A stretch of 8,026 bases of DNA from the IMG/VR virus record IMGVR_UViG_2654587792_000015. One strand, given 5' to 3'. The notes beneath the pieces were generated by a model that searched no databases, was not told the DNA's origin, and saw nothing but the letters and a program-made list of their open reading frames with translations. This DNA comes from a virus. Its lineage: Duplodnaviria; Heunggongvirae; Uroviricota; Caudoviricetes. Both the position numbers and the translations under genes were made by a program. This document shows positions 96-8,026 of the stretch, piece by piece (the stretch's first letter is position 1; each line of letters begins with the position of its first letter).

Positions 96-1571
96 TTGAT
101 CATGAATGGGCAGCATACCGAGTTTAATCGCCTTCTCGGGCTCGGTAATGAATTACTTCAGCAGCGACAGGGGCTGGTGAATGTACCGTTACGGCTACCA
201 CAGGCAACCCTGGATGATAAACAGCAGACTGCACTGAATAACAGCGAGCGCGAACTGGCTCTGTCCCGCCTGAAGGGGGAAGCCCGTGAGCGTGCCCGCT
301 TGGGTTATGCTGCGGATGATCTCGGCTTTGTGGGAGAGGCGTATCAGACAGCCAGACAGAATTATATCAATAACTCACTGGATGCCTGGCGAAATAACCA
401 GGCAAATAAACCCAAAGCGCATAAAAAGACCGAAGCGGAAAAAACAGAAGATATTTATAAACGGCTGATTAAACAGCAAAAAGAACAAATAGCACTGGCA
501 GGGCAGAATACTGAACTGGCTAAGATGAAATATCAGGTCAGTCAGGGCGAATTATCAACCCTGTCAGAAGCGCAGAAAAAAACGCTTTTGCAGAATGCAG
601 CACTCATCGACCAGAAAAAGATTCGTGAGCAGCTTGCTGCGTATGAAAGCAGCCTGGCGGACAGTAATGCCAGTACCCGGGCGTCTAACGACGCGCAGTT
701 ACTGGGATATGGTGAAGGCTCACGGATGCGTGAACGACTCCAGGAAATGTGGAGTATCCGGCATGAGTTTGAGCAGAAAAATAACGAGCTGCTGAGACAG
801 TATCAGGCCGGAGAAATTGAAGAAGCCCTGTGGAAACAGGAGAAAGAACTGAATAAAAAATATCTGGAAGAGCGTCTCAGCGATCAGCAGGATTATTATG
901 CAAAGGCCGATGCTTTACGTAATAACTGGAATGCAGGACTCCAGGAGGGGCTGACCAACTGGGCAGACAGTGCCACCGATTATGCTTCGCAGGCGGCAGA
1001 TGCTGTCGTTTCCACTATGGACGGACTGGTATCAAATATTTCCGATGCACTGGCCGGAAATGTTGTGGACTGGAGAAACTGGGGGAGTTCAATTCTCCAG
1101 GAAGTTTCAAAAATTCTGATGAATGCGGCCATTGTTAACGGACTGAAGTCACTCTCCGGTGCCGGAGGGTGGCTTGGTACGGTCGGCGGATGGATTTCGG
1201 GGGCGGTGGCAAACGCAAAAGGTGGTGTTTACACATCAGCAAATCTGAGTGCTTACAGTAACACTATTGTGGATACACCGACGTATTTTGCTTTTGCGAA
1301 AGGTGCCGGGCTGATGGGCGAGGCCGGGCCTGAAGCTATCATGCCACTGACACGGGCAGCGGACGGCTCTCTTGGGGTCAGAGCCATTGGCAATGTGAAT
1401 AGTGGCGGGGGGGTTGTTTATTCTCCCGTGTATCACATCAGCATTCAGAATCAAGGGAGCAATGGCGAGATAGATGCGCGCTCAGCCAGGGGACTGGTGG
1501 ATCTGATCGACAGCAGGGTTGTGTCAATTATGCAGTCATCGCGTCGGGATGGAGGATTGTACAGTGCCTGA
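96..1571 (+). CDS. H: Phage tail tape measure protein (lambda gpH-like), C-terminal ~490 codons only; probably a 5'-truncated remnant rather than a complete gene
   Basis: Open frame 96-1571 (TTG at 96, first ATG at 102), ending ...RRDGGLYSA then TGA at 1569-1571. The Gly-rich, hydrophobic C-terminal segment (NWNAGLQEGLTNWADSATDYASQ...ILMNAAIVNGL...) and the Q/E/K/R-rich coiled-coil-like region before it match the C-terminal architecture of lambdoid tape measure proteins, and the ORF sits immediately upstream of M-L-K-I-J. No Shine-Dalgarno motif precedes 96 or 102, and all three forward frames contain stops within nt 1-57 (frame 0 TGA 51-53, frame 1 TAA 55-57, frame 2 TAA 5-7 and TAG 38-40). 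Confidence 0.75.
   Translation: MIMNGQHTEFNRLLGLGNELLQQRQGLVNVPLRLPQATLDDKQQTALNNSERELALSRLKGEARERARLGYAADDLGFVGEAYQTARQNYINNSLDAWRNNQANKPKAHKKTEAEKTEDIYKRLIKQQKEQIALAGQNTELAKMKYQVSQGELSTLSEAQKKTLLQNAALIDQKKIREQLAAYESSLADSNASTRASNDAQLLGYGEGSRMRERLQEMWSIRHEFEQKNNELLRQYQAGEIEEALWKQEKELNKKYLEERLSDQQDYYAKADALRNNWNAGLQEGLTNWADSATDYASQAADAVVSTMDGLVSNISDALAGNVVDWRNWGSSILQEVSKILMNAAIVNGLKSLSGAGGWLGTVGGWISGAVANAKGGVYTSANLSAYSNTIVDTPTYFAFAKGAGLMGEAGPEAIMPLTRAADGSLGVRAIGNVNSGGGVVYSPVYHISIQNQGSNGEIDARSARGLVDLIDSRVVSIMQSSRRDGGLYSA
1549..1571 (+). promoter_or_regulatory. H/M translational-coupling junction: Shine-Dalgarno GGAGG plus overlapping stop and start
   Basis: GGAGG at 1551-1555, GTG 1564-1566, H stop TGA 1569-1571 (GTGCCTGA). 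Confidence 0.5.
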
Positions 1572-2609: not shown

Positions 2610-3353
2610 ATGACACAGACAGAATCAGCGATTCTGGCGCACGCCCGGCGATGTGCGCCAGCGGAGTCGTGCGGCTTCGTGGTAAGAACGCCGGAGGGGG
2701 AAAGATATTTCCCCTGCGTGAATATCTCCGGTGAGCCGGAGGCGTATTTCCGTATGTCGCCGGAAGACTGGCTGCAGGCAGAAATGCAGGGTGAGATTGT
2801 GGCGCTGGTCCACAGCCACCCCGGTGGTCTGCCCTGGCTGAGTGAGGCCGACCGGCGGCTGCAGGTGCAGAGTGATTTGCCGTGGTGGCTGGTCTGCCGG
2901 GGGACGATTCATAAGTTCCGCTGTGTGCCGCATCTCACCGGGCGGCGCTTTGAGCACGGTGTGACGGACTGTTACACACTGTTCCGGGATGCTTATCATC
3001 TGGCGGGGATTGAGATGCCGGACTTTCATCGTGAGGATGACTGGTGGCGTAACGGCCAGAATCTCTATCTGGATAATCTGGAGGCGACGGGGCTGTATCA
3101 GGTGCCGTTGTCAGCGGCACAGCCGGGCGATGTGCTGCTGTGCTGTTTTGGTTCATCGGTGCCGAATCATGCCGCTATTTACTGCGGCGACGGCGAGCTG
3201 CTGCACCATATTCCTGAACAACTGAGCAAACGAGAGAGGTATACCGACAAATGGCAGCGACGCACACACTCCCTCTGGCGTCACCGGGCATGGCACGCAT
3301 CTGCCTTTACGGGGATTTGCAACGATTTGGCCGCCGCATCGACCTTCGTGTGA
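2610..3353 (+). CDS. K: Phage tail tip assembly protein K (lambda gpK-like), with an N-terminal MPN/JAMM-like motif and a C-terminal NlpC/P60-like region
   Basis: Uninterrupted 247-codon ORF starting 5 nt after the L stop. A JAMM-type motif H-x-H-x7-S-x2-D is present (HSHPGGLPWLSEAD, about nt 2811-2852), and candidate NlpC/P60 Cys and His lie in VTDCYTLF and PNHAAIY. The 3' end overlaps the I start by 103 nt in a different frame, as in lambda. Confidence 0.9.
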   Translation: MTQTESAILAHARRCAPAESCGFVVRTPEGERYFPCVNISGEPEAYFRMSPEDWLQAEMQGEIVALVHSHPGGLPWLSEADRRLQVQSDLPWWLVCRGTIHKFRCVPHLTGRRFEHGVTDCYTLFRDAYHLAGIEMPDFHREDDWWRNGQNLYLDNLEATGLYQVPLSAAQPGDVLLCCFGSSVPNHAAIYCGDGELLHHIPEQLSKRERYTDKWQRRTHSLWRHRAWHASAFTGICNDLAAASTFV

Positions 3354-3899
3354 AAACGGGGGCCGAAGCCATCCGGGCACTGGCCACACAGATCCCGGCG
3401 TTTCGTCAGAAACTGAACGAGGGCTGGTATCAGGTGCGCATTGCCGGGCGTGATGCAGGCGAAAACGAATTATCAGCCCGTCTTAATGAGCCGCTGAAAA
3501 ATGGTGCCGTGATCCACATCGTACCGCGTCTGGCGGGAGCAAAAAGTGGCGGTGTGTTTCAGGCGGTGCTGGGGGCGGCGCTGATTGCAGTGGCATGGTG
3601 GAACCCTGCAGGCTGGCTGGGAGCCGCGGCTGTATCGGGCATGTATGCGGCAGGGGCCAGTATGATCCTGGGCGGAGTGGCGCAGATGCTGGCACCGAAA
3701 GCCAGAACGCCCACGTACACACACAACAGATAACGGCAAACAGAACACCTATTTCTCCTCACTGGATAACATGGTTGCCCAGGGCAATGTTCTGCCTGTT
3801 CTGTACGGTGAAATGCGCGTGGGGTCACGGGTGGCTTCTCAGGAGATCAGCACGGCAGACGAAGGGGACGGTGGTCAGGTTGTGGTGATTGGTCGCTGA
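3251..3899 (+). pseudogene. I: Phage tail tip assembly protein I (lambda gpI-like), reading frame disrupted by an apparent 1-nt insertion near 3708-3713
   Basis: ATG 3251 (GAGAGAGG upstream, inside the K 3' end) opens frame 2: MAATHTLPLASPGMARICLYGDLQRFGRRIDLRVKTGAEAIRALATQ..., which terminates at TAA 3731-3733 (...KARTPTYTHNR). The conserved gpI-like C-terminus (...TTDNGKQNTYFSSLDNMVAQGNVLPVLYGEMRVGSRVASQEISTADEGDGGQVVVIGR) is in the +1 frame (frame 0) and ends at TGA 3897-3899, just before the J ribosome-binding site. The switch point is at or near the CCC run 3710-3712. Confidence 0.75.
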
Positions 3900-3959: not shown

Positions 3960-6900
3960 ATGGGTAAAGGCAGCAGTAAGGGGCATACCCCGCGCGAAGC
4001 GAAGGACAACCTGAAGTCCACGCAGCTGCTGAGTGTGATCGATGCCATCAGCGAAGGGCCGATAGAAGGTCCGGTGGATGGATTAAAAAGCGTGCTGCTG
4101 AACAGTACGCCGGTGCTGGACACTGAGGAGAATACCAACATCTCCGGCGTCACGGTGGTGTTCCGGGCAGGTGAGCAGGAGCAGACACCGCCGGAGGGGT
4201 TTGAATCCTCCGGCTCCGAGACGGTGCTGGGTACGGAAGTGAAATATGACACGCCGATCACCCGGACCATCACGTCGGCAAACATCGACCGTCTGCGCTT
4301 TACCTTCGGTGTGCAGGCACTGGTGGAAACCACCTCAAAGGGGGACAGGAATCCGTCGGAAGTCCGCCTGCTGGTTCAGATACAGCGTAACGGTGGCTGG
4401 GTGACGGAAAAAGACATCACCATTAAGGGCAAAACCACCTCGCAGTATCTGGCCTCGGTGGTGGTGGATAACCTGCCGCCGCGCCCGTTTAATATCCGGA
4501 TGCGCAGGATGACGCCGGACAGCACCACAGACCAGCTGCAGAACAAAACGCTCTGGTCGTCATACACCGAAATCATCGATGTGAAACAGGGCTACCCGAA
4601 CACGGCACTGGTCGGCGTACAGGTGGACTCGGAGCAGTTCGGCAGCCAGCAGGTGAGCCGTAATTATCATCTGCGCGGACGCATTCTGCAGGTGCCGTCG
4701 AACTACAACCCGCAAAAACGGCACATACAGCGGTATCTGGGACGGAACGTTAAAACCGGCATACAGCAACAACCCGGCCTGGTGTCTGTGGGATATGCTG
4801 ACCCACCCGCGCTACGGCATGGGGAAACGTCTTGGTGCGGCGGATGTGGATAAATGGGCGCTGTATGTCATCGGCCAGTACTGCGACCAGTCGGTGCCGG
4901 ACGGCTTTGGCGGCACGGAGCCGCGCATCACCTGTAATGCGTACCTGACCACACAGCGCAAGGCGTGGGATGTGCTCAGTGATTTCTGCTCGGCGATGCG
5001 CTGTATGCCGGTATGGAACGGGCAGACGCTGACGTTCGTGCAGGACCGACCGTCGGATAAGGTGTGGACCTATAACCGCAGTAATGTGGTGATGCCGGAT
5101 GATGGCGCGCCGTTCCGCTACAGCTTCAGCGCCCTGAAAGACCGCCATAATGCCGTTGAGGTGAACTGGATTGACCCGAATAACGGCTGGGAGACGGCGA
5201 CAGAGCTTGTTGAAGATACGCAGGCCATTGCCCGTTACGGTCGTAACGTCACGAAGATGGATGCCTTTGGCTGTACCAGCCGGGGGCAGGCGCACCGCGC
5301 CGGGCTGTGGCTGATTAAAACAGAACTGCTGGAAACGCAGACCGTGGACTTCAGCGTGGGTGCAGAAGGGCTTCGCCATGTACCGGGCGATGTCATTGAA
5401 ATCTGTGATGATGACTATGCCGGTATCAGCACCGGCGGGCGCGTGCTGGCGGTGAACAGCCAGACCCGGACGCTGACGCTCGACCGTGAAATCACGCTGC
5501 CATCCTCCGGTACCACGCTGATAAGCCTGGTTGACGGAAGTGGCAATCCGGTCAGCGTGGAGGTTCAGTCCGTCACCGACGGCGTGAAGGTAAAAGTGAG
5601 CCGTGTTCCTGACGGTGTTGCTGAATACAGCGTGTGGGGGCTGAAGCTGCCGACGCTGCGCCAGCGCCTGTTCCGCTGCGTGAGTATCCGTGAGAACGAC
5701 GACGGCACGTATGCCATCACCGCCGTGCAGCATGTACCGGAAAAAGAAGCCATCGTGGATAACGGGGCGCACTTTGACGGCGACCAGAGCGGCACGGTGA
5801 ATGGTGTCACGCCGCCAGCGGTGCAGCACCTGACCGCAGAAGTCACCGCAGACAGTGGGGAATATCAGGTGCTGGCGCGCTGGGACACGCCGAAGGTGGT
5901 GAAGGGCGTGAGCTTCCTGCTTCGCCTGACCGTGGCAGCGGACGATGGCAGTGAGCGGCTGGTCAGCACGGCCAGGACGACGGAAACTACATACCGCTTC
6001 ACGCAACTGGCGCTGGGAAATTACAGGCTGACAGTCCGGGCGGTAAATGCGTGGGGACAGCAGGGCGATCCGGCATCGGTATCGTTCCGGATTGCCGCAC
6101 CGGCAGCACCGTCGCGGATTGAGCTGACGCCGGGCTATTTTCAGATAACCGCCACGCCGCATTTTGCGGTTTATGATCCGACGGTACAGTTTGAGTTCTG
6201 GTTCTCGGAAAAACGGATTGCTGATATCAGGCAGGTTGAAACCAGCGCGCGTTATCTTGGTACGGCGCTGTACTGGATAGCCGCCAGTATCAATATCAAA
6301 CCGGGCCATGATTATTATTTTTACGTTCGCAGTGTGAACACCGTTGGCAAATCGGCATTCGTGGAGGCTGTCGGTCGGGCGAGCGATGATGCGGAAGGTT
6401 ACCTGGATTTTTTCAAAGGAGAAATCGGGAAAACACATCTGGCCCAGGAGCTGTGGACGCAGATTGATAACGGTCAGCTTGCGCCGGACCTGGCTGAAAT
6501 CAGGACGTCCATTACGAATGTCAGCAATGAAATCACGCAGACCGTCAATAAAAAACTGGAAGACCAGAGTGCGGCAATCCAGCAGATACAGAAAGTTCAG
6601 GTTGATACAAATAATAACCTGAACAGCATGTGGGCCGTGAAACTGCAGCAGATGCAGGACGGACGCCTTTATATTGCGGGTATCGGAGCCGGTATTGAGA
6701 ATACGCCAGCAGGTATGCAGAGTCAGGTGCTTCTGGCTGCTGACCGGATTGCGATGATTAATCCTGCGAATGGCAACACAAAGCCGATGTTTGTTGGTCA
6801 GGGCGATCAGATATTCATGAACGAAGTGTTCCTGAAATACCTGACGGCTCCCACCATTACCAGCGGCGGTAATCCTCCGGCATTTTCCCTGACACCGGAC

Positions 6901-7440
6901 GGGCGGCTGACGGCGAAAAATGCCGATATCAGCGGTAACGTGAATGCGAACTCCGGGACGCTCAACAACGTCACGATTAACGAAAACTGTCGGGTTCTGG
7001 GAAAACTGTCCGCCAACCAGATTGAAGGCGATCTCGTTAAAACAGTGGGCAAAGCTTTCCCCCGGGACTCCCGTGCACCGGAGCGGTGGCCATCAGGGAC
7101 CATTACCGTCAGGGTTTATGACGATCAGCCGTTTGACCGGCAAATTGTTATTCCGGCGGTGGCATTCAGTGGCGCTAAGCATGAGAGAGAGCATACTGAT
7201 ATTTACTCCTCATGCCGTCTGATAGTGCGGAAAAACGGTGCTGAAATTTATAACCGTACCGCGCTGGATAATACGCTGATTTACAGTGGTGTTATTGATA
7301 TGCCTGCCGGTCACGGTCACATGACGCTGGAGTTTTCGGTGTCAGCATGGCTGGTAAATAACTGGTATCCCACAGCAAGTATCAGCGATTTGCTGGTTGT
7401 GGTGATGAAGAAAGCCACCGCAGGCATCAGTATCAGCTGA
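3960..7440 (+). pseudogene. J: Phage host-specificity / central tail fibre protein J (lambda gpJ-like), reading frame disrupted by an apparent 1-nt insertion at the A5 run 4714-4718
   Basis: ATG 3960 with GGAG at 3948-3951 (8-nt spacer). Frame 0 reads MGKGSSKGHTPREAKDNLKSTQLLSVIDAISEGPIEGPVDGLKSVLLNSTPVLD..., which I recognise as the gpJ N-terminus. After ...SNYNPQ (about 4715) frame 0 degenerates and stops at 4851-4853, while the gpJ-like sequence continues in the +1 frame from about 4720 ([39 protein letters not shown]...) uninterrupted to TGA 7438-7440. Removing one nucleotide in 4713-4719 yields a single ORF of about 1159 codons. Confidence 0.85.
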
Positions 7441-7458
7441 ATTTTATAACCCATATAC

Positions 7459-7483
7459 GGGCGCCAGAAATGGCGCCTTTTTT
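7459..7483 (+). terminator. Rho-independent terminator downstream of J
   Basis: Stem GGCGCC (7460-7465), loop AGAAAT (7466-7471), stem GGCGCC (7472-7477), followed directly by TTTTTT (7478-7483). It lies 19 nt after the J stop and before the lom-like ribosome-binding site. Confidence 0.65.
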
Positions 7484-7507
7484 ATTGCAGAAAAGCGAGA
7501 GGTAATT

Positions 7508-8026
7508 ATGCGTAAAGTTTGTGCAGCCATTTTGTCCGCAGCCATCTGTCTGTCCGTATCCGGTGCGCCTGCATGGGCGTCTGAACATCAGTCCACACTG
7601 AGCGCGGGGTATCTTCATGCCCGTACGAACGCTCCCGGCAGCGATAATCTGAACGGGATTAACGTGAAATACCGTTATGAGTTTACGGACGCGCTGGGGC
7701 TGATTACGTCCTTCAGTTATGCCAATGCTGAGGATGAGCAAAAAACGCACTACAGCGATACCCGCTGGCATGAAGATTCCGTGCGTAACCGCTGGTTCAG
7801 CGTGATGGCGGGGCCGTCTGTGCGCGTGAATGAATGGTTCAGCGCGTATGCGATGGTGGGTGTGGCTTACAGCCGTGTGTCGACTTTCTCCGGGGATTAT
7901 CTCCGCGTAACTGACAACAAGGGGAAAACGCACGATGTGCTGACCGGAAGTGATGACGGTCGCCACAGCAACACCTCTCTGGCGTGGGGAGCTGGCGTGC
8001 AGTTTAACCCGACCGAATCCGTGGCC
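7508..8026 (+). CDS. lom: Lom-like outer membrane protein (Ail/Lom/PagC/OmpX family), 5' part; the 3' end lies beyond the window
   Basis: ATG 7508 preceded by GAGAGG (7497-7502). The frame is open to the end of the window (173 codons): MRKVCAAILSAAICLSVSGAPAWA-SEHQ... The N-terminus is a typical signal peptide with an A-x-A cleavage site; GINVKYRYEF and the alternating aromatic/hydrophobic strands are characteristic of the Lom/Ail beta-barrel family. It occupies the position immediately downstream of J, as lom does in lambda. It is absent from the ORF track because no stop occurs within the window. Confidence 0.8.
   Translation, partial: MRKVCAAILSAAICLSVSGAPAWASEHQSTLSAGYLHARTNAPGSDNLNGINVKYRYEFTDALGLITSFSYANAEDEQKTHYSDTRWHEDSVRNRWFSVMAGPSVRVNEWFSAYAMVGVAYSRVSTFSGDYLRVTDNKGKTHDVLTGSDDGRHSNTSLAWGAGVQFNPTESVA

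Follow-up and report, generated by a model that had tools for sequence, protein, structure and literature searches.

The window, by which we mean the whole stretch of 8026 nucleotides that was analysed, ends downstream of the tail-tip gene J in an open reading frame that raises a simple question: what does this gene encode, and is it an intact piece of lysogenic-conversion cargo in a prophage whose virion genes are decaying, as a preliminary description proposed? Very probably, positions 7508 to 8026 (+ strand) hold the first 87%, from the 5′ end, of a lom-type gene of the ordinary kind, an Ail/Lom-family "moron" located between J and the side-tail-fibre gene. The frame (frame 2) opens with the ATG at 7508, and its translation runs without a stop codon through the last base, 8026, giving the first 173 of an expected 199 codons and reaching the contig end. 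A Shine-Dalgarno motif, GAGAGG, is present at 7497–7502 (+), 5 nt before the ATG, and a terminator hairpin at 7459–7478 lies between it and J; the description of a separate gene behind the J terminator, with its own Shine-Dalgarno motif, thus holds. Base composition does not set the gene apart, the GC content being 0.50–0.55 over lom and 0.47–0.56 in the adjoining 3′ part of J. No Rfam family matches within the window. Two antisense open reading frames, one of 177 amino acids opposite lom (7433–7966, − strand) and one of 562 amino acids opposite J (4750–6438, − strand), have no Pfam match and are probably due to chance.

The 173 residues match the Pfam family Ail_Lom (PF06316) with 361.7 bits where the gathering score is 23 (E = 1.3e-108), covering profile positions 1–173 of 199, and on such a score chance can be excluded as the source of the match. 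The general Pfam model OMP_b-brl also matches, with E = 7e-17. When compared with the sequences of solved structures, the fragment matches lambda Lom (chain C of PDB entry 9wso) with E = 8e-31, and OmpX and Yersinia Ail over the whole mature part with E values of about 1e-14 to 1e-15; these profile and structure matches confirm the beta-barrel family that had been named from the letters of the DNA. Against the NCBIfam equivalog model for OmpX the product scores 84 bits (cut-off 176), and against the complement-resistance model PRK15240 it scores 82 bits (cut-off 258). Both scores are far under the cut-off, so the product is a Lom-type member of the family and not an orthologue of OmpX or of the PRK15240 protein. 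OmpX of E. coli and Ail of Yersinia are eight-stranded barrels like the one predicted here, with loops that are shorter than those of the window's Lom. Over its full length the fragment aligns with the chains of lambda Lom, OmpX and Ail, and the window breaks off before strand 7 is complete; strand and loop positions, here and below, were set by eye on the OmpX topology.

The product begins with a predicted Sec-type signal peptide, MRKVCAAILSAAICLSVSGAPAWA, encoded by 7508–7579 (+). By inspection of the sequence, its n-region is the basic MRK, containing two basic residues, a hydrophobic core follows, and cleavage is predicted after AWA, at residue 24, with alanines at positions −3 and −1; the mature protein would then start with SEHQ. 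The mean Kyte-Doolittle value is 2.13 in the hydrophobic core, as compared with −0.62 in the mature part. The signal peptide of lambda Lom aligns with it. The same inspection found no lipobox, the residue preceding Cys14 being an isoleucine. The signal peptide noticed beforehand is therefore supported.

Lambda Lom (NP_040601.1) is the obvious standard of comparison. Lambda lom shares its genomic position, the T-tract upstream and the Shine-Dalgarno region with the gene in the window. Across the whole 173 residues the two proteins share 36% identity, and their difference is therefore not concentrated at the N-terminus, as had been supposed; the only lambda-like portion is the 3′ end, which the window lacks. 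Lambda Lom is 206 residues long instead of 199, and its loop 1 is longer by 8 residues. Predicted membrane strands are kept between the two proteins (GINVKYRYE, SVMAGP, SAYAM and AWxAGxQxNP), whereas the predicted surface loops 1–3 are unrelated in sequence. Full-length proteins of the window's type score 416–418 bits with the Ail_Lom profile and lambda Lom scores 182, by which measure the window's type is the family's mainstream form and lambda Lom the outlier. A PDB sequence search found neither the carboxy-terminus of lambda J nor the side tail fibre in entry 9wso, and a literature search for the entry code found no paper on it.

How common this type is can be seen from complete E. coli genomes. 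Positions 7300–8026, which comprise the last 141 nt of J and lom, are matched in 4790 of 5426 of them, at a median of two and up to 14 places per genome; in 1783 records the identity is at least 95%. Among the best matches listed, the gene is in every case annotated as "Ail/Lom family outer membrane beta-barrel protein" and stands beside "gpJ". In the closest E. coli genome, lom is 600 nt long and encodes 199 amino acids. The 199-residue protein WP_001233154.1 of E. coli O111:H2 strain 12A is identical to the window's Lom at 172 of 173 residues, and WP_001233546.1 of E. coli strain XJW9B277 is 95% identical. These prophage genes share with the window the position after gpJ, the terminator, the spacer and the ribosome-binding site; the window's copy differs in lacking the last 26 codons and in having a last 52 nt of another allele type. 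Among deposited phages, many Stx-converting phages carry the window's Lom type at 88–91% identity. Phage 434 has a 199-residue homologue (UMO75287.1, annotated as an Ail/PagC/OmpX porin) that is 89% identical over 173 amino acids, and its terminator, ribosome-binding site, gene and second terminator are laid out between J and the side tail fibre as here. In the window lom adjoins the 3′ side of J; a tail-fibre gene follows lom in loci L001, L011 and L012, in lambda and in 434. The gene is thus already known, is routinely annotated and is among the commonest of E. coli prophage genes. The suggestion that it may be a distinct allele is right relative to lambda and wrong otherwise, the type being the commonest in E. 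coli prophages and that of phage 434. Past its tail fibre genes, phage 434 carries further cargo in this region (L093, 6027–7719): an NleB-like pseudogene and a gene for an NleC-like type III effector.

The strong intrinsic terminator after J (7459–7486, +) was identified by a scan and by folding. It consists of an 8-bp stem, a GAAA loop and a T-tract; the stem-loop, GGGCGCCA-GAAA-TGGCGCCT at 7459–7478, has six G-C pairs out of eight, is followed by TTTTTTATT, and starts 19 bases after the TGA of J (7438–7440). A centroid RNA fold shows the same hairpin. The scan of the + strand from 7000 to 8026 gave two terminator-like sites, the second being a weak 5-pair site within J. Across 83 related loci, L013–L092 among them, every variant keeps all eight pairs; two double substitutions that restore pairing (G:C to A:T and C:G to T:A) and one G-T intermediate occur. 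Because pairing is kept in all stem variants, the terminator is real and conserved. In one variant, the loop is inverted from AGAAAT to ATTTCT, with the stem unaltered. Lambda has a different hairpin at this position, followed by the same T-tract, and in phage 434 a terminator is annotated at the same place after J. In the intact relative L012, lom is followed by a second terminator ahead of the side-tail-fibre gene, and one is annotated there in phage 434 as well; this downstream terminator is a feature seen in the relatives only. With terminators upstream and downstream, lom forms a terminator-bracketed unit inside the late operon. The leader of 33 nt from T-tract to ATG is the same in all of the 83 related loci but one, which has one T fewer, and lambda lom has kept GAGAGGT in its leader. 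The stretch from the J stop to the terminator (7441–7458, AATTTTATAACCC...) is conserved even beside unrelated J carboxy-termini and is absent in lambda.

From where lom would be transcribed is less clear. A search for a promoter within the 3′ end of J had been suggested; a consensus scan of the + strand from 7000 to 8026 finds no sigma-70-like site for lom, a kind of scan that weak or non-consensus sites could escape. No promoter can sit between the T-tract and the ATG, since the gap is just 21 nt. The sequence TATAAC at 7445–7450, which by eye is conserved across related loci, was considered as a −10 element and rejected: it has no acceptable −35 element or extended −10, and transcription from it would start right at the base of the terminator hairpin, which leaves a promoter here unsupported. 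In lambda late transcription, Q-modified polymerase reads through terminators. A preprint reports that lambda lom expression rises strongly late in infection, which fits Q read-through of the J terminator. For the lysogen, the literature on lambda reports that lom is active, but one microarray study did not detect its expression in a lambda lysogen and remarked that little is known of the lom promoter.

Whether this particular copy is intact depends on what lies beyond the window. A look-up of the K protein led to the 8026-bp draft contig JHTM01000182.1 of assembly GCA_001506145.1, to the whole of which the window is identical. The contig ends inside the gene; the lom frame is therefore incomplete and cannot be extended from this record. 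The 26 of 199 codons beyond 8026 should encode the end of strand 7, loop 4, strand 8 and a carboxy-terminal ...GY(K/R)F. To insert outer-membrane proteins, the Bam machinery requires the aromatic motif at their carboxy-terminus. The ...GY[KR]F terminus is present in the intact relatives L001, L012, lambda and 434 and in three loci identical to the window in its last 52 nt. As the last 26 codons lie beyond the contig end, this copy cannot be called intact, and a stop codon, frameshift or insertion just past 8026 is possible.

The last bases before the contig end are themselves peculiar. Positions 7441–7974 are identical to loci L001, L014 and L017, while the final 52 nt (7975–8026, +) are identical only to L063, L067 and L075, marking a switch of allele type within lom. 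These 52 nt reflect either true recombination or a switch of assembly path where the contig ends. In a contig collection with one genome per species, the last 70 nt of the window have no exact match. It is quite possible, if somewhat short of probable, that the last ~52 nt are an assembly artefact, taken from a paralogous lom copy elsewhere in the genome. Besides the abrupt change from one allele group to another, the three positions that depart from the best E. coli match all sit in these 52 nt, and the multiplicity of matching places in E. coli genomes would offer the assembler such paralogous copies. On the other hand, recombinant alleles with different 3′ ends do exist: among lom alleles of the window's type, dS is 0.11 in codons 25–173 and 0.61 in codons 174–199. 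Given these recombinant alleles and the jump in dS, a real mosaic junction near codon 156–170 is equally plausible. The assignment to the Ail/Lom family is unaffected by the choice between the two.

The 3′ end of lom also has a history of its own. The final 81 nt are identical at 74 of 81 positions between lambda and L012, despite the 36% protein identity elsewhere, and we infer a mosaic joint inside lom near codons 156–173. A shared 3′ block of 81 nt (~91% identical) is found at positions 11930–12010 of L012 and 4506–4586 of L002. The occurrence of a common lom 3′ block in several prophages of one genome is the most probable reason, as we infer, for the break of the contig inside lom.

Most of the other genes in the window belong to the tail module, and their condition bears on that of lom. 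The first 94 nt (1–94, +) are the end of an IS66-family, ISEc22-like insertion sequence, 99% identical to the terminus of ISEc22 in L011, and 2109 E. coli genomes contain matches whose annotation reads ISEc22 transposase. This end abuts codon 585 of the tape-measure gene, of which the fragment at 96–1571 (+) encodes only residues 585–1075 of 1075, and the tape measure is thus truncated by insertion of the element. With the intact relative L012 (E. coli XJW9B277) as reference for frameshifts, the minor tail gene M-like (1549–1905, +) and tail gene K (C40 peptidase/JAB; 2610–3353, +) are intact. Minor tail gene L (1905–2604, +) carries a +1 frameshift near 1962–1965, tail assembly gene I (3350–3899, +) one near 3712, and J (3960–7440, +) one near 4722–4725, where tblastn matches pass from frame 3 to frame 1. 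Relative to L012, the change in J is an insertion of one base, and those in L and I are likewise of one base each. Of the six tail genes present, four (tape measure, L, I and J) are therefore damaged, in agreement with the decay of virion genes that had been proposed, and the tail module can no longer make tails. None of the insertions in L, I and J lies within a homopolymer run. In complete E. coli genomes no independent copy of the J frameshift was found, the best match being 97.4% identical; since no identical copy was found among complete genomes, the three frameshifts may be sequencing errors of the draft. The IS junction is harder to explain away in this manner.

In such surroundings lom could itself be a pseudogene, disrupted just past the contig end by an insertion sequence, a deletion or a frameshift. 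Apart from the damage to its neighbours, the IS junction at the opposite contig end and the precedent of L036, the single locus out of 80 IMG/VR loci of the window's Lom type that stops prematurely, at codon 109, point in this direction. We nevertheless consider disruption unlikely. The 173 open codons are one residue off an annotated intact protein, and the other 79 of the 80 loci have the full 199-codon frame. A break at an insertion sequence should leave bases of the element, as the 94 nt at the left end do, and at the right end the sequence is lom through the final base; the shared 3′ block of lom accounts for the break of the contig without any lesion. Among 65 distinct lom alleles dN/dS is 0.17, a value that points to purifying selection acting on the Lom family, with no direct word on the copy of this genome.

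If the gene is intact and selected, the question arises who benefits. Lambda Lom, when expressed, gave strong defence against lambda-vir and not against T7, an effect that the authors of the preprint mentioned above credit to a block of adsorption. Lom might accordingly be selected for the benefit of the phage and not for host virulence, by blocking the adsorption of related phages (superinfection exclusion) to lysogens or to cells about to lyse. Its sharp rise in expression late in infection would suit such a role, as would its place in the late tail operon, beside the receptor-binding end of J. Within 4795–7440, residues 279–800 of J are 94–100%, mostly 98–100%, identical to lambda J, while the last 130 amino acids, the receptor-binding end, are 33–48% identical, with a sharp mosaic boundary between them; J and Lom thus diverge from lambda together. 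We regard selection for phage benefit as possible but doubtful. In the same preprint, expression at the level of the lysogen gave no protection against lambda-vir, and the tail defects of this prophage make a benefit to phage kin moot. Nor do Lom and J behave as a strictly matched pair, as the comparison of loci described next makes plain.

Because the receptor-binding end of J and the loops of Lom both differ from lambda, matching of their types was tested. In its strongest form, the receptor-binding end of J and loops 1–3 of Lom would be exchanged as one cassette, each Lom type blocking phages with the matching J tip in a self-recognising exclusion; were this so, a lom gene kept in a prophage with dead tails would protect the host from the relatives of the dead phage. 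Among the 80 IMG/VR loci, however, those with 95–99% identical lom have at least four unrelated J carboxy-termini, and phage 434 combines its 89%-identical Lom with a J end (last 150 amino acids) just 45% identical to that of the window. Strict pairing of Lom and J was rejected on this account, and the cassette is very improbable. A loose association through linkage remains, and a specific lock-and-key pairing is unlikely.

The best explanation is that the window contains most of an ordinary lom gene of the Ail/Lom family, and its product may be expected to behave as its relatives do. Judging from the family, the precursor would be exported by the Sec pathway and cleaved after AWA, and the Bam machinery would insert the mature protein into the outer membrane as an eight-stranded barrel with four surface loops. 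During lytic growth, polymerase antiterminated by Q would read through the J terminator into lom, and in the lysogen the transcript would come from a weak promoter. Some of its relatives, Ail for example, are documented to confer serum resistance; in lambda, this property belongs to Bor. For Lom itself, no report of serum resistance was found in the literature searched, which does report adhesion; lambda Lom has been linked to adhesion to epithelial cells. Of the proposed link to adhesion and serum resistance, the first part accordingly stands for lambda Lom and the second finds no support for Lom. By analogy with lambda Lom, the surface loops may mediate adhesion to host cells, and high expression may hinder the adsorption of related lambdoid phages. 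Both properties would be carried over from a protein that is 36% identical and unlike the window's Lom in the surface loops that are relevant here.

For the biology of lambdoid prophages the locus itself matters little: it is a routine component present in most E. coli genomes, in a copy that is incomplete in the record. Two lessons are of modest use. An "intact cargo gene in a decaying prophage" is not a call that can be made from a contig ending inside the gene, and lom is a mosaic gene, the conserved 3′ end of which is a likely breakpoint in genome assemblies.
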